Shown here piece after piece: positions 18,929 to 46,733 of a stretch of DNA of 64,000 bases (position 1 is the stretch's first letter; each line of letters opens with the position of its first letter). Source of the stretch: Escherichia phage JEP6; sequence record MT764206.1; one strand, given 5' to 3'. A program made the position numbers and the translations under genes. The notes under the pieces are model-generated. The model searched no databases. It was given only the letters and a program-made list of their open reading frames with translations, and was not told where the DNA came from.

Positions 18929-20205
18929 TGGTGTTTAACCCTATGCATGATTTCTTTATTTTTACCGAGATTAAATCCGCGTTCGTTCGGATTTCCCAAA
19001 TAACCACATGTTCTTCTTATTGTGTTCATCTTTTTAGGATCAGTTTCTCCACAAATAGAACAAACAAATCCGTTTTCAGTAGGAGTCATTTCATGGGTGC
19101 TTCCGCATGTAAAACATTTATCTACTGGCATATTAACACCAAAATAATCTAAATGTTGTGCAGCATAATCCCATACGGCCTCAAGACCTTTTAAGTTATT
19201 TTTCATATCAGGAAGTTCAACATAAGAAATGTGACCACCTGTCGCAATGAAATGATATGGCGCTTCACGAGAAATCTTTTCAAACGGAGTAATATTTTCT
19301 TCTACTGAAACATGGAAACTATTAGTGTACCAACCTTTATCGGTAACATCTTTTACGCTTCCATATTTTTCTGTATCAAGTTTACAGAAGCGATAACAAA
19401 GGTTTTCAGCAGGAGTCGAATATAAACTAAAAGCAAATCCGGTTCTTTCAGTCCACTGTTTAAGATGGGCATTCATTTTAGTTAAAATTTCCTGTCCAAT
19501 ATCACGACCGACAAGAATATTCAATTCATGAATACCAATGTATCCTAAAGACACTGAACTTCTACCGTTTTTAAATAACTCAATTATGTCGTCATCAGGT
19601 TTAAGACGAACCCCAAATGCACCTTCTTGGTAAAGAATAGGAGCAACAGTCGCTTTAACTCCTTTTAAGGAACTAATTCTACACATCAAAGCTTCAAAAC
19701 ACAAATCCATTCGTTCATTGAATAATTCAACAAATTTCTGTTCATTGAACTGTGTTCCAATATAAGAATCTAACGCGATGCGAGGAAGATTCAATGTTAC
19801 AACACCAAGATTATTACGTCCATCAAGAATTTCATTGCCAGTCGAATCTTTCCATACGCTCAAGAAACTACGGCAACCCATTGGAGAAACAGGAACAGAT
19901 GAACCAGTGATAGCTTTATTATTCTTAGCTGAAATAATATCAGGATACATCCTTTTGCTTGCGCACTCTAGAGCAAGCTGCTTAATATCATAGTTCGGAT
20001 CGTCTTTGTAAAGATTAACACCTTCTTCAACAAACATAACAAGCTTAGGGAAAATAGGAGTTATCCCATCACGACCAAGACCTTTAATACGATTTTTCAG
20101 AATTGCTTTCTGAATCATTCGTTCAGTCCAGTCAGTTCCCGTACCAAATGTAATTGTTACAAAAGGCGTTTGTCCGTTTGAACTAAAGAGAGTATTTACT
20201 TCATC
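18925..20205 (-). CDS. nrdD: Anaerobic ribonucleotide reductase, exon 2 (approximate 5' boundary)
   Basis: Glycyl radical motif RRTCGYLG and Zn ribbon CFTCGS...CSICG; the ORF's first ~17 codons are probably intron. Confidence 0.85.
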   Translation of the reverse strand, partial: DEVNTLFSSNGQTPFVTITFGTGTDWTERMIQKAILKNRIKGLGRDGITPIFPKLVMFVEEGVNLYKDDPNYDIKQLALECASKRMYPDIISAKNNKAITGSSVPVSPMGCRSFLSVWKDSTGNEILDGRNNLGVVTLNLPRIALDSYIGTQFNEQKFVELFNERMDLCFEALMCRISSLKGVKATVAPILYQEGAFGVRLKPDDDIIELFKNGRSSVSLGYIGIHELNILVGRDIGQEILTKMNAHLKQWTERTGFAFSLYSTPAENLCYRFCKLDTEKYGSVKDVTDKGWYTNSFHVSVEENITPFEKISREAPYHFIATGGHISYVELPDMKNNLKGLEAVWDYAAQHLDYFGVNMPVDKCFTCGSTHEMTPTENGFVCSICGETDPKKMNTIRRTCGYLGNPNERGFNLGKNKEIMHRVKHQ

Positions 20206-21249
20206 ATTATATTCAGCATGAGTCGCAAATTCATGCCCGTTTATATGAAACAACAAAATTTGGATAGTCCATAGATATGCAACGTTCTTTTATAGTGCTA
20301 GGATGAAAATTTAGCGCTTTAGCTGCTTCTATATAAGACGTATACTTAATACCGTCAACAACCACATATTCAGGAACTTTATGAATAGTAGTCTTAATAC
20401 TCAAAACAAGAGGATGAGTTTCGACTTCACTTTCAGTGCAATTTAAATATTCCGCTGCTTTTTTAAAACTTCTAAAAGTTTTATTTTTAAGCTTTATCGA
20501 TACTTGTTTTTTACTTTTTCGACTATTGATATTATTTTGCACATGTTCCTTAGATCTTCCGTTTTTAGCATAATATTCAGCTACAGAAGATTTTATATTG
20601 TTTTTATGAGATTCGGATAACACTTTACCCTTATGAGCATCTCTTAATTTTTGAATATGTTCTTCAGTATCCGGATGCTTATAAAACTTTTTACCGCCTA
20701 TGGATTTATTTAAACATTTTTTGCTATAAAAATATTTACGTATGACCTCTTCTTCATGTTTTAATGCATCTTTATAACTATCAAATGTTTTTAAAATTAT
20801 CCATTTAGTAGGTGTATCAGTTTTTAAGCGTTCATTTATATACTTAGATGACGTTGTGTAAGTTTTCCAGTTTGTGGGCTTGTTTTTAATTGTTCTAAAT
20901 TTTTTATAACCGATATAAATGTCGCCATTAGAAAACTTAACTAAGTATGTAAATGCGTCTTTATCTTTTATTTTAGTACAACGTCTTTTTATCCATTTCA
21001 TTGTTTCACCTCGTATTCATAAGATAATCTTATTTATACAAGATGACTGCTGCATGTCGCCATGCAGATTAGACTATATCTTCATCTTTCGATGCCGGCC
21101 GTTTCGAATAGCATTAGCTTCTATTCTACACCGCTACATTCATCACGGTTAGTCGTTAGGCATTTAGTTCAAAAGAACATTTAGCACGGGATTGTCTACT
21201 AGAGAGGTTCCCCGTTTAGACCGGTTTTACATGAGCCTGAATTAAATTA
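20206..21249 (-). mobile_element. Group I self-splicing intron in nrdD (boundaries approximate) carrying a homing endonuclease ORF
   Basis: nrdD reading frame interrupted; about 250-nt structured non-coding core at 21002-21249 followed by the endonuclease ORF. Confidence 0.8.
20231..21001 (-). CDS. GIY-YIG homing endonuclease (I-TevII-like) encoded within the nrdD intron
   Basis: AFTYLVKFSNGDIYIGY GIY-YIG motif; basic C-terminal DNA-binding region. Confidence 0.85.
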   Translation of the reverse strand: MKWIKRRCTKIKDKDAFTYLVKFSNGDIYIGYKKFRTIKNKPTNWKTYTTSSKYINERLKTDTPTKWIILKTFDSYKDALKHEEEVIRKYFYSKKCLNKSIGGKKFYKHPDTEEHIQKLRDAHKGKVLSESHKNNIKSSVAEYYAKNGRSKEHVQNNINSRKSKKQVSIKLKNKTFRSFKKAAEYLNCTESEVETHPLVLSIKTTIHKVPEYVVVDGIKYTSYIEAAKALNFHPSTIKERCISMDYPNFVVSYKRA

Positions 21250-21787
21250 ACTCATACGCCTGAAACGCGTCGTATACGTCTTTTTCTGTTTTAGATTGGG
21301 CATAATTCAACGCATCAGCGATTTGCCATTTTTCTGCATCCTCAATATGTTTTGCATAGGTGCGTTTAACATATGGAGAAAGTACTTTATCTACATTCGC
21401 AAAAGTCGTTCCGCCATATTGATGAGAAGCAACCTGTGCAGTAATTTGTGCCATAATTGCAGTAGCAACGCCGATTGATTTAGGAGTTTCAATCTGCGCA
21501 TTACCGAGCTTAAATCCGTTTTCAAGCATTCCTTTTAAATCTACTAAACAGCAATTAGTAAATGGAAGAGCAGGGGAATAATCAATATCATGGAAATGGA
21601 TAATTCCGCTTTCATGCGCTTTCATAATAAAAGACGGGACCATATTTTTGGCAATGTGTTTAGACACAATACCAGCCATAAGGTCCCGTTGAGTTGGAAA
21701 AACACGAGAATCTTTATTAGCATTCTCGTTTAAAAGGTCTTTATTAGTTTTATGAATCAATCCTTCAATTTCTTTTTCAATTGTCAT
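21250..21787 (-). CDS. nrdD: Anaerobic ribonucleotide reductase, exon 1 (approximate 3' boundary)
   Basis: MTIEKEIEGLIHKTNKDLL... N-terminus; ATG overlaps the gene 49 stop. Confidence 0.85.
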
Positions 21788-22257
21788 TTTAAACTCTTTC
21801 TAAGCTGCTTCTTAAATGAAGCTATTAATTGTGTTTTGGTGTCAGATTCATTATATTCAAATCCTCTTTGAAGCATCTCAGCCATCATTTCCTCTTTTCC
21901 TAAACGAGAAAATTCCTTTGATTTATCTCCAACAAAGTTAGGGTGAATATTATTTTGGGTGTAATCGGATTTTAAATAAGTAAGTAAATTTTCTAGCCAT
22001 TCAAGATAATCAACGCCTTGTCCTTTTAAACCAGAACGATTAAATTTATGTTTCATTTGACCTTCTGCAGCATTGCAGAGATTACAAAGCAATCCACGTA
22101 CCTTTCCTGCTTTTGGTCCATTTAATTCATGGTCATGGTCGAGGTGATTAGCTTGAACATCAGGATTTAGTTCTCGTTGGCAAATTAAGCATTTACCGTT
22201 TTGTGCATTATAAAATTTTTGTTTTTCTTCTTTGTATAATTTGCCAGTCAATAACAT
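21784..22257 (-). CDS. 49: Endonuclease VII (Holliday junction resolvase)
   Basis: 157 aa MLLTGKLYKEEKQKFY...; Zn-binding CLICQ...CNLC; HNH-like core. Confidence 0.93.
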   Translation of the reverse strand: MLLTGKLYKEEKQKFYNAQNGKCLICQRELNPDVQANHLDHDHELNGPKAGKVRGLLCNLCNAAEGQMKHKFNRSGLKGQGVDYLEWLENLLTYLKSDYTQNNIHPNFVGDKSKEFSRLGKEEMMAEMLQRGFEYNESDTKTQLIASFKKQLRKSLK

Positions 22258-22264
22258 AATAAAA

Positions 22265-22287
22265 CCCTTACCTTGAATAGATAAGGG
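22265..22287 (-). promoter_or_regulatory. RBS-sequestering hairpin upstream of gene 49, with a late-promoter-like ATAAATA box at 22288-22296
   Basis: mRNA reads AUAAUAAAUA-CCCUUAUC-uauucaa-GGUAAGGG-uuuuauu-AUG; the SD AAGGG sits in the 3' arm. Confidence 0.55.
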
Positions 22288-22299
22288 TATTTATTATTT

Positions 22300-22476
22300 T
22301 CAAGTATTGTAAAACATTCGATGCAATCGCTTATATTGTCGAATCATCTTTTTAGTAGGACGAGAATAAGTTCCTACACAAGTGGTCATATTAGGGTCTG
22401 TAGAATTTCCTTTAATAAAAAGTTTCCAAACCTTACCGCCATTTAACTTTTCAGTATAAATCAATTCAGTTTTCAT
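22300..22476 (-). CDS. Small hypothetical protein (49.1 position)
   Basis: 58-codon ORF MKTELIYTEKLNGG...; ATG overlaps the upstream stop (TAATG); below the track cutoff. Confidence 0.35.
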   Translation of the reverse strand: MKTELIYTEKLNGGKVWKLFIKGNSTDPNMTTCVGTYSRPTKKMIRQYKRLHRMFYNT

Positions 22477-22940
22477 TAAAATGCTCGGTCAGAAAAAGAA
22501 ATTTGAGTTTCAAGCCATTCAATATATTCTGCCGCAGCTTGCATCAAATTTCCTTCATAACCATCGTTGTTTTCTTGCGCAGCTAATTTAGCTAATGCAT
22601 ATGAAATGCGTTCACCTTGAAAAGCGGCTTTAGGTTTATGAATAGCTTGATCAACTCGTTCTACAACTTCTTCAATTTCGCCATTTTCTACTGATTCAGT
22701 ATTCCACAAGCACCAATACGTAATTGGCTTATCGTAGATGTTAATAACCTTTCCATCAGAAAGTTCAATTTCAATAATTCCAGTATCAGGTTCTATATCA
22801 TCTTCACATTCTTTTGCGAGTTCACGAACTTTAAAGACAGTACCTGCACTAAGTTCTGGCCAATAATTACATAGCCCTTTATCAGCACGATTAATTCTAA
22901 ACCACTTATCTACTGTAATCATGTCCCATCTCCATATCAA
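22476..22940 (-). CDS. Hypothetical acidic protein; possibly the Lon-protease inhibitor pin by position
   Basis: 154 aa ORF at the expected pin position; identity not confirmed. Confidence 0.4.
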   Translation of the reverse strand: MIWRWDMITVDKWFRINRADKGLCNYWPELSAGTVFKVRELAKECEDDIEPDTGIIEIELSDGKVINIYDKPITYWCLWNTESVENGEIEEVVERVDQAIHKPKAAFQGERISYALAKLAAQENNDGYEGNLMQAAAEYIEWLETQISFSDRAF

Positions 22941-23045
22941 TTAAGTCATTTATCGTAGGTTCATTATATACTATTTCTTCATCAGTGTAAACCGGTTCTT
23001 CCGGCTCTGGCTCTACAGTTTCCCATCTAGCCGCCCACCAGGGTT

Positions 23046-23366
23046 TTATAGCGTAATCCATTCTCGTATTGTCTGAGTTACTACACGTTCACGGGGCTCG
23101 ACCAGTTCAACAGTCGGAACTGCATAATACCAGTCAGAATGGTAAGAACCTGAACGGCATTCATTTACGGAAACATGTACATTATGTTTTGGACTAAAAT
23201 AAACACACTGACGATATTGACATTTACCGTCTTGCACCCAGTCTTCTATTTCGATAGGTTTAAGATAATCCGAAAAATCGAAATCATAATTTTCTGAAAA
23301 TGCATCATGGTCTTCGATGATTTCACTCAGAACTGCATCAACATCTAATTTATTTTCAATATTCAT
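23046..23366 (-). CDS. Hypothetical acidic protein
   Basis: 106 aa ORF. Confidence 0.5.
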   Translation of the reverse strand: MNIENKLDVDAVLSEIIEDHDAFSENYDFDFSDYLKPIEIEDWVQDGKCQYRQCVYFSPKHNVHVSVNECRSGSYHSDWYYAVPTVELVEPRERVVTQTIREWITL

Positions 23367-23376
23367 TTTTCACCAA

Positions 23377-23586
23377 TTAATTTCGCAATTTATTAAGTTC
23401 TTCATAATCAATCCAGGATTCTAGTCCTGATGGCAAATCAGATTCAATTTCCCAAAGAAGCTCTTCAATTTTCTGAAGACGTTCTAATTCTTCAGCTGGA
23501 ATAGTAACCATTGATGGAGCTCTTGATACGCTAATATCGTAAATCATATTTACCCCAGTTTGACCATACAATCGCCATATTTCCAT
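23377..23586 (-). CDS. Hypothetical protein
   Basis: 69 aa ORF. Confidence 0.45.
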   Translation of the reverse strand: MEIWRLYGQTGVNMIYDISVSRAPSMVTIPAEELERLQKIEELLWEIESDLPSGLESWIDYEELNKLRN

Positions 23587-23765
23587 TTAGAAATAGACTT
23601 TTCACCATTAGAATAATAAACTTCGAGTTTAGCACGGCCATTTTTAATTTGAATAACCTTTGCTGTCATCAAAGTTCCATACCCATAATAAACTGCAACC
23701 TCATCACCTACATATACCGCGCTTCCGCGGTAGTCATGGATATAATCAGTTCCTTCGAGCATCAT
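23550..23765 (-). CDS. Hypothetical protein
   Basis: 71 aa ORF. Confidence 0.45.
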   Translation of the reverse strand: MMLEGTDYIHDYRGSAVYVGDEVAVYYGYGTLMTAKVIQIKNGRAKLEVYYSNGEKSISKWKYGDCMVKLG

Positions 23766-24025
23766 TTAAAGTATTCCCGCAATTGGTCAAATCCACCAAT
23801 ATGACTTCCATCAGGAGCAAATACTTGTGGCATCGTCAGTCCAATTTGAGTATCACGACCCAGTTTAGTTAGAAGCTCAGCGATTTTCTCATCATCAAAA
23901 ACACCTTTTTCCGGCATAATGTTGATAAATTCAAACGGCTGTTTCTTCACAGTCAAGAGACGTTTTGCATTATCGCAATACACACATTTGTGGATGTTGC
24001 TATCATAACCATATACTTTAAACAT
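23762..24025 (-). CDS. nrdC: Thioredoxin/glutaredoxin for ribonucleotide reductase
   Basis: 87 aa MFKVYGYDSNIHKCVYCDNAKRL... with CVYC active site. Confidence 0.92.
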   Translation of the reverse strand: MFKVYGYDSNIHKCVYCDNAKRLLTVKKQPFEFINIMPEKGVFDDEKIAELLTKLGRDTQIGLTMPQVFAPDGSHIGGFDQLREYFK

Positions 24026-42357: not shown

Positions 42358-42391
42358 GAATATATTATCACAATTCTAAGAGAAAGTAAAC
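42358..42391 (-). promoter_or_regulatory. Early promoter cassette copy
   Basis: tatattatca ... gtaaac. Confidence 0.5.
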
Positions 42392-42396
42392 TGCTT

Positions 42397-42921
<525 letters not shown>

Positions 42922-43362
42922 TTAAAAGAGGTTGTTCATTATTCGGTAAAGTGAAGGACCCATCACATATTGCCACTGAGTACGAGGAATAAGAGCAAAA
43001 GCGTCCATCTCTGGAATCATAACACCATCTTTATTTTCAAAATAAGACTCGCAATGGCAATTTCTAAACATCTCATGCTCTACTGGAATCGTATAATAAA
43101 ATAGCTGTAAGTCTTTATTACTAGAATATTTAAATACACCTAGGTCTTCTAGAAGGTCTGGATTATAATTGCTAAAACCGGTCTCTTCTAAGCATTCTCT
43201 TTTTGCAGCTTCCAGTGCATTCAAATCAGAACTTTCTACACGGCCCTTTGGAATATCCCAGCGGTGTGCCATCATTCCAGGCTTACGAGAACCAGTAACC
43301 CGACCCATAAATAAATCTTTATCTTCTGTCATAAAGATAATACCAGCTGATAAGGTTTTCAT
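42922..43362 (-). CDS. nudE: Nudix hydrolase
   Basis: Nudix box GRVESSDLNALEAAKRECLEETG. Confidence 0.8.
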   Translation of the reverse strand: MKTLSAGIIFMTEDKDLFMGRVTGSRKPGMMAHRWDIPKGRVESSDLNALEAAKRECLEETGFSNYNPDLLEDLGVFKYSSNKDLQLFYYTIPVEHEMFRNCHCESYFENKDGVMIPEMDAFALIPRTQWQYVMGPSLYRIMNNLF

Positions 43363-45881: not shown

Positions 45882-46386
45882 TATTTTTAATTTTACAAAT
45901 TCGTTCAGCTTCTTCAACAGCGGCAGTGATAATGCTTTTAGCTATAGGAGTACTAATACTAGTAGCTTTTACACTTAACACGATTTCTTTATCTTCACCA
46001 GGCCAACCCCACGATTTTTCACCATGAGTGCCTTTAATTACAGCAGACACCTCAAGTGAGCATCCATTATCGCATGTTTTTACATTAACAACCCAAGTGT
46101 CACTTTTCTCAACCGGTTTATCCCAGTAAATATTAAGAATACGTGGGACATCAAATTTAGCAGGGCAAATCTTAACCGTAAGACCTTCGCTTTCTAGCCA
46201 ATTAATAAGAGGGCGTTCATACATGCGGCGATGTGGGCTTTGAACTCGACAAGCTTTGTACCCATTGCTCGCGGCTTCACTAAGCTCTTCTAATACCTGC
46301 TTTTGCATTATTGATAAGATACCATCAAAAGATTTTTCGGAAGTTTCATTCAGTTCGGTATAAAGAGACATAACAGTTTTCCTCAA
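45853..46386 (-). CDS. Hypothetical protein
   Basis: 177 aa ORF. Confidence 0.5.
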   Translation of the reverse strand: MRKTVMSLYTELNETSEKSFDGILSIMQKQVLEELSEAASNGYKACRVQSPHRRMYERPLINWLESEGLTVKICPAKFDVPRILNIYWDKPVEKSDTWVVNVKTCDNGCSLEVSAVIKGTHGEKSWGWPGEDKEIVLSVKATSISTPIAKSIITAAVEEAERICKIKNSLHLLSSMI

Positions 46387-46396
46387 ATTATAGGCT

Positions 46397-46427
46397 CATA
46401 ATATCTCAATCATGAGCCTATGTAAAC
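46397..46427 (-). promoter_or_regulatory. Early promoter
   Basis: cataatatctca ... gtaaac. Confidence 0.45.
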
Positions 46428-46691
46428 TTATTTCATATTATTGAAATATTCTTCTGCGATTTCGTCGTTATCATGGTAAACTTTAGAAGACAGTTTAACA
46501 TAACTTTCAGCAGTGAACATGTTAATCACAACCTTTACAGTATACCACTGACCATCTTCATTACCCATTACTGCGTAAGTTTCAAACATCGGATGGTCAG
46601 GACCGATAACTTTAATATCATTCACTGTACGACCAAAATCTTCTGAAACACATTTCATAAAGAAGTTGAACAGTTCGCCGTAATTATCCAT
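46428..46691 (-). CDS. Hypothetical protein
   Basis: ATG at 46691 with GGAG SD; the track start at 46745 lies inside the promoter. Confidence 0.5.
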   Translation of the reverse strand: MDNYGELFNFFMKCVSEDFGRTVNDIKVIGPDHPMFETYAVMGNEDGQWYTVKVVINMFTAESYVKLSSKVYHDNDEIAEEYFNNMK

Positions 46692-46733
46692 TTCATTCTC
46701 CAAGTTGTTTTTCTGTATCAGTAGTTGATAGTT

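Follow-up and report, generated by a model that had tools for sequence, protein, structure and literature searches.

A probable T4-type translational-control leader, with a hairpin over the ribosome-binding site and an adjoining late-promoter box, precedes gene 49 of Escherichia phage JEP6

Gene 49 of Escherichia phage JEP6 (MT764206.1) lies in a part of the analysed 64,000-nucleotide stretch (here called the window) where all genes of the region are carried by the minus strand. In the direction of transcription, pin (encoding the PinA peptidase inhibitor) is followed by a 58-aa ORF of the DUF7279 type, by gene 49 and by the start of nrdD (Table 1). The gene 49 product matches Pfam PF02945 (E 8e-22) and PF09124 (E 1.5e-33) and its PHROG is endonuclease VII. 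The locus is common: a 901-bp segment around the gene 49 leader matches 768 phage records, mostly Escherichia and Shigella Tequatrovirus, at up to 99.1% identity. Upstream of pin, a sigma-70-type promoter-like site is a candidate source of early transcripts reading through into gene 49, and phage SA20RB carries a similar annotation. The ORFs upstream of gene 49 are contiguous on the same strand behind this site, and the 58-aa ORF may form the 3' end of the early read-through unit; the gene 49 hairpin is also terminator-like. The start of the 58-aa ORF overlaps the pin stop as TAATG. A 137-nt piece of the JEP6 sequence between pin and gene 49 (22348-22484, minus strand) is deleted in T4, which joins T4 pin in frame to the final 15 codons of the DUF7279 ORF; unlike in T4, this ORF is a separate gene in JEP6. 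Downstream of gene 49, the nrdD frame ends after 181 codons (21787..21242, minus strand), and structured non-coding sequence and then a homing endonuclease gene follow. This layout (20231-21787, minus strand) is as expected for the T4 nrdD group I intron; an Rfam scan covering 19000-24000 (E <= 1) called no group I intron.

Table 1. Features of the gene 49 leader, its neighbourhood and two comparable leaders in the window, ordered along the minus strand
Feature	Position	Strand	Basis or remark
Lysozyme gene e leader hairpin	42925..42875	-	-16.2 kcal/mol, z -5.05
Gene e tandem TATAAATA boxes	42919..42912 and 42906..42899	-	
Lysozyme gene e CDS	42885..42391	-	
Sigma-70-type promoter-like site TTTACA-17-TATAAT, upstream of pin	22991..22963	-	11/12 matches
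pin (PinA peptidase inhibitor)	22922..22476	-	
58-aa ORF (DUF7279), upstream of gene 49	22476..22300	-	UGA stop 22302..22300
Lower A-U helix, 5' strand AUAAUAAA	22297..22290	-	overlaps promoter box; in upstream-promoter RNA only
Late-promoter-type box AATAAATA	22295..22288	-	pattern match; ATAAATA of the original prediction, 22294..22288
Core hairpin, 5' arm ACCCUUAUCU	22288..22279	-	folds and covariation
8-nt 5' arm of the original prediction, CCCUUAUC	22287..22280	-	
Predicted late +1 (A)	22282	-	published -13..-6 geometry applied to the sequence; inside 5' arm
Loop of the original prediction, UAUUCAA	22279..22273	-	
Core hairpin loop AUUCA, 5 nt	22278..22274	-	AUUUA in T4
Core hairpin, 3' arm AGGUAAGGGU	22273..22264	-	contains the Shine-Dalgarno sequence
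8-nt 3' arm of the original prediction, GGUAAGGG	22272..22265	-	
Shine-Dalgarno sequence UAAGG	22270..22266	-	8 nt from AUG; fully inside paired positions
Spacer UUUUAUU	22264..22258	-	
Lower A-U helix, 3' strand UUUAUUAU	22263..22256	-	spacer plus A and U of AUG
Gene 49 AUG	22257..22255	-	
Gene 49, recombination endonuclease VII, 157 aa	22257..21784	-	ORF, domains and annotation in relatives
Gene 49 codon 53 (Val), GUA	22101..22099	-	GUG in T4, annotated start of nested shorter gp49
Homing endonuclease, 256 aa, 1.2 kb downstream of gene 49	21001..20231	-	leader 20985-21080

The 58-aa ORF and gene 49 are separated by a 42-nt gap (22299..22258, minus strand) that reads, up to the start codon, AAAAUAAUAAAUA-CCCUUAUC-UAUUCAA-GGUAAGGG-UUUUAUU-AUG; written from the late-promoter-type box onwards, the leader is AATAAATA-CCCUUAUC-UAUUCAA-GGUAAGGG-UUUUAUU-AUG. 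The original prediction placed here a hairpin that sequesters the ribosome-binding site, and all the elements it quoted are found, on the minus strand, a strand that it left unstated. Its two 8-nt arms are present as well, but the predicted helix is longer. RNAfold gives a core hairpin of 10 bp, from A22288-U22264 through U22279-A22273, continued by a lower helix of eight A-U pairs (22297..22290 with 22263..22256) that covers the A and U of the AUG, so that the start codon is occluded in addition to the Shine-Dalgarno (SD) sequence, which is fully paired within the 3' arm as had been proposed. This A-U extension is weak, and distant relatives do not conserve it. Folding energies bear out a stable stem: the 25-nt core folds at -12.4 kcal/mol (z -5.0) and the 56-nt early-type leader at -18.1 kcal/mol (z -5.5), with none of 200 shuffles equally stable in either case. 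The antisense strand of the core is weaker (-8.7 vs -12.4 kcal/mol), because a G-U pair turns into a C-A mismatch. For this leader hairpin the Rfam scan of 19000-24000 (E <= 1) found no curated family, only a chance match to ohsC that stays below the gathering threshold (28.4 bits, threshold 50, E 0.28).

The box of the late-promoter type abuts the core hairpin so closely that its last A (22288) doubles as the first paired base. In T4 the late-promoter consensus TATAAATA occupies positions -13 to -6, and T4-like phages often have A or T at -13 (Nolan et al. 2006, PMC1524935). An ATAAATA upstream of the 5' arm, as originally predicted, is indeed there, and the full 8-mer is AATAAATA, a variant common at -13, not the canonical TATAAATA. 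When the published geometry is applied, the predicted late start falls on the sixth base after the box, which is also the sixth base of the 8-nt arm first described, and the predicted late RNA retains 3 nt (AUC) of the 5' arm. The proposal that late transcripts start inside the 5' arm and leave the SD free agrees with this position and with the fold of the late-type RNA (22282 to 22245), which is unstructured at -1.2 kcal/mol, 184 of 200 shuffles folding at least as well. The box was rejected as evidence by itself because WATAAATA is less frequent in the 64-kb window than expected by chance (18 seen vs 26.8 +/- 4.9 expected; 15 of the 18 on the minus strand). This scarcity fits selection against stray late promoters. 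The excess over chance lies in the hairpin and in the conservation, among relatives, of where the box stands relative to the 5' arm. For 17 of the WATAAATA boxes the sequence that follows is long enough to be folded, and of these the gene 49 box starts the most stable hairpin.

Judged by its sequence and setting, the leader is the orthologue of the T4 gene 49 leader. The T4 counterpart (NC_000866, 46856-46896) agrees with it exactly in the box AATAAATA, in both stem arms and in the SD, and is followed by the same gene; the two leaders differ at two places over 42 nt, JEP6 having C for U in the loop and one extra U in the spacer. The extra U lengthens the lower A-U helix, and the 75-nt early form folds at -18.2 kcal/mol compared with -16.4 kcal/mol in T4. 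gp49 and pin flank the leader in both phages, whereas the gene directly upstream is a separate 58-aa ORF in JEP6 and the pin fusion in T4. The likeness to T4 gene 49 control that was drawn at the outset is thus well founded: the downstream gene encodes endonuclease VII, the leader is near-identical, and reviews list gene 49. Specifically, genes e, soc, 49 and I-TevI are named as T4 mRNAs in which the SD and/or the AUG is sequestered in a helix (Uzan & Miller 2010, PMC3014915), and Barth et al. 1988 on gene 49 is cited in a second paper for the same mechanism (Edgell et al. 2010, PMC2988022). Time-resolved RNA-seq of T4 puts gene 49 and nrdD, which lies downstream of it, into the early class of transcripts; gene e is early as RNA and late as protein. 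The omics study did not detect gp49 and so does not confirm that this protein appears late (PMC9697503 Table S2). A literature search for genome-wide T4 5'-end maps found none that was usable, the omics paper giving expression classes only.

The window also contains an internal positive control for the design of box plus hairpin, namely the leader of lysozyme gene e, to which the original prediction had likened the gene 49 leader and which turns out to be built in the same way. As at gene 49, a box adjoins the 5' arm, the 3' arm contains the SD, and pairing joins the box RNA to the spacer and the AUG. Unlike at gene 49, there are two tandem boxes, of which the second falls within the loop and arm; the arms are unrelated in sequence to those of gene 49, and a different gene is controlled. 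The T4 lysozyme leader is reportedly treated by McPheeters et al. in a study of 1986, as far as it is conveyed by reviews. A further leader of this type precedes the homing endonuclease gene: the 5' arm in which TATAAATA (21038..21031, minus strand) lies belongs to a hairpin whose pairing takes in GAGGUG, the ribosome-binding site of the endonuclease, and the 96-nt fold reaches -28.7 kcal/mol (z -5.4). In I-TevI, I-TevII, I-TevIII, segB and mobE, the ribosome-binding site is sequestered by a hairpin that arises solely on early or middle read-through RNA, and it is freed when transcription starts at a late (or middle) promoter lying within or beside that hairpin (Edgell et al. 2010, PMC2988022). 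The homing endonuclease leader in the window follows the late-promoter/hairpin logic reported for I-TevII (PMC2988022). Homing-endonuclease leaders differ from that of gene 49 in that they serve mobile-element genes, have longer hairpins and carry the box inside the 5' arm instead of immediately before it; some of these genes also have operator-based autorepression.

The arrangement is widespread among T4-like phages. Two IMG/VR scans with gp49 gave loci from 100% to ~45% protein identity, and nearly all of the ~60 related phages (to ~45% gp49 identity) keep a late-promoter box beside or inside a hairpin that pairs the SD. Across 40 unique upstream regions (46 loci, gp49 identity 100% to 50%) the start codon is preceded, at a distance of 24-33 nt, by a TAAATA-type box. 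Of 29 distinct box-to-start leaders, 28 have a helix of 8-12 bp that begins with the final A of the box and 27 have an A at the equivalent of the predicted +1; the consensus SD, wherever recognisable, lies within or overlaps the 3' arm of the helix. Folding energies in relatives range from -13.7 to -25.3 kcal/mol for the early forms and from -0.6 to -5.3 kcal/mol for the late forms. In Aeh1-like loci (L043-L046, from genomes of 221-233 kb) the box is CTAAATA, the divergent late-promoter consensus published for Aeh1 (Nolan et al. 2006, PMC1524935), and this suggests that the box follows the promoter specificity of each lineage. The same logic is for the most part preserved, with varying geometry, in RB43-like, RB49-like and Acinetobacter-phage relatives. 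At one locus (L102:540-603) the 5' arm, UUCCUCCAAUA, precedes the box, and TATAAATA runs from the last part of this arm into the loop; at another (L036:1464-1504) the AUG is paired by an outer helix and an SD-like AAGGA sits in a small inner stem.

Across these relatives the arms diverge in sequence yet stay complementary, as in CCCUUAUC/GGUAAGGG, GGUUCAUC/GGUGAACC, CUCUUAUC/GGUAAGAG and CCUCUAUA/UAUAGAGG, and likewise in GAGUCAU/AUGACUC and GUCCUAU/AUAGGGC. In an unguided MAFFT alignment, 90.4% of cells are paired (36-49% with the partners slid), 57 cells are double changes against 17.6 +/- 4.6 in shuffles (0 of 500), and four Watson-Crick types occur at each of three pairs and two at a fourth. 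These counts are conservative, because about five divergent leaders stand out of register in this alignment (L036, L039, L040 and L047, and part of the 5' arm in others). A second alignment, which was made with a covariance model built on the first, includes untrained loci and leans towards the structure, gave 92.9% paired cells and 65 double changes (19.4 +/- 4.0 in shuffles). The model search was repeated at E <= 0.02 with sense matches only, as E <= 1 drew antisense and weak matches; it recovers leaders of untrained loci, every one of them immediately at the start of gp49. The model has one strong match in the 64-kb window, the gene 49 leader itself (41.5 bits, E 1.8e-6), the sole other match being weak (18.6 bits, E 0.54). 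A U-G wobble is retained in 28 of the 32 distinct sequences of the model alignment and, together with the weaker antisense fold, this argues for selection on the sense RNA. Covariation in these alignments thus independently supports a functional RNA helix on the sense strand.

The same hairpin can be read as a terminator. It is flagged by a terminator scan, with its 10-bp stem, four G-C pairs and 8-nt tail UUUAUUAU containing 6 U, and in phage OE5505 (MK373785.1, L001:1814-1836) ARNOLD annotates it as a 'putative transcriptional terminator' (-10.7). A G-C-containing stem and a U-rich run are indeed what it shares with rho-independent terminators; it differs from them in that the U-run is not conserved, whereas the SD and the late box are. 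In L042-L047 only 1-3 of the 8 tail bases are U, while these loci keep the stem, the SD within it and the adjoining box. Moreover, the stem ends 0-1 nt from the start codon in most relatives, so that any 'tail' there is coding sequence, the early class of gene 49 and nrdD RNA in T4 indicates read-through (PMC9697503 Table S2), and reviews treat the structure as translational (PMC2988022, PMC3014915). We therefore consider it very unlikely that the hairpin is chiefly a rho-independent terminator of the pin/58-aa-ORF unit, with gene 49 expressed from its own late promoter and the pairing of the SD incidental, and the terminator label on the OE5505 hairpin is probably misleading. A partial, leaky terminator role alongside masking of the ribosome-binding site is conceivable, if rather unlikely.

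Translational coupling was considered because the stop of the upstream gene lies near the box and the helix: the UGA of the 58-aa ORF is 2 nt upstream of the lower helix and 11 nt upstream of the core stem, and 0-3 nt separate the stop from the box in many relatives. Ribosomes ending at this UGA would then melt the 5' arm, and early gp49 would be made in proportion to upstream translation instead of being shut off. However, a terminating ribosome covers about 11-13 nt past the first base of the P-site codon. It would reach ~22294..22292, short of the start of the core stem at 22288, so that the -12.4 kcal/mol core should survive. The identity of the gene upstream also varies among relatives while the hairpin stays constant, and the literature speaks of inhibition, not of coupling (PMC3014915); we regard coupling as very improbable. 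That the inverted repeat acts on DNA (as an operator occluding the late promoter, or as a cruciform) or is an RNA processing or stability element is barely credible, for although the repeat overlaps the promoter and I-TevI is known to repress itself at its own late promoter (Edgell et al. 2010, PMC2988022), the retained U-G wobble and the weaker antisense fold point to the sense RNA and not to duplex DNA symmetry, the arm sequences vary freely while pairing holds, which is unexpected for a sequence-specific operator, and the RegB GGAG motif is absent from the gene 49 leader.

Altogether, we consider it highly probable that the element is a translational-control leader of the T4 gene 49 type, in which a hairpin masks the ribosome-binding site early and a late promoter supplies an open RNA. 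Early and middle transcripts would originate farther upstream, for instance from the sigma-70-like promoter that precedes pin, and run via pin and the 58-aa ORF into gene 49. The leader of such RNAs would fold, with the SD paired and the start codon paired too through the A-U extension; because both would be paired, 30S subunits could not initiate on the early RNA and no full-length endonuclease VII would be made. After the onset of replication, RNA polymerase carrying gp55 would use the AATAAATA box that abuts the 5' arm and start at about A22282. The resulting late RNAs would be without most of the 5' arm, would form no hairpin and would have their ribosome-binding site free, and the Holliday-junction resolvase would then be translated when it is needed for DNA packaging. 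In this scheme the sequence, the thermodynamic stability, the near-identity to the T4 leader and the conservation with compensatory changes are direct observations, and we infer the transcript 5' ends, the read-through and the translational timing in JEP6 from the T4 literature and from the geometry of the leader.

The element is already known and not new, since it is the orthologue of a known T4 leader. The mechanism of the T4 gene 49 leader was reportedly described in 1988 by Barth, Powell, Trupin and Mosig, in Genetics 120:329. With that description and its treatment in reviews, the JEP6 leader carries little weight as a discovery. The additions made here are the covariation support across T4-like phages, the warning about the terminator label and the finding that GUG at codon 53 of gene 49 is not conserved. 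In T4 this GUG is the annotated start of a nested shorter gp49 (second gene 49 CDS, 46382..46699). The JEP6 codon, GUA, is no canonical start codon. When the codon was compared among relatives, GUG was found only in T4, L006, L043, L045 and L046, most close relatives having GUA and more distant ones GUU, GUC or AUU. Because GUG is so rare at this codon, the nested 12-kDa gp49 product seems not to be conserved, as far as the codon itself tells, and this bears on whether the 12-kDa product has a general function.

For annotation, gene 49 is to be treated as late-translated despite its early RNA. In T4 the mechanism rests mainly on old biochemical work, and the conservation of box and hairpin down to ~45-50% protein identity provides independent evolutionary support for it. 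A broader picture, to which as a whole we give an even chance, would be that the module is ancient in Straboviridae and has been maintained by compensatory evolution while co-evolving with the late sigma specificity of the individual lineages, as the Aeh1-like CTAAATA box hints, that the two nested gp49 products of T4 are a lineage-specific oddity absent from most relatives, JEP6 among them, and that in the Tequatroviruses, where the hairpin has acquired a U-tail, it may also act as a leaky attenuator of early transcription.
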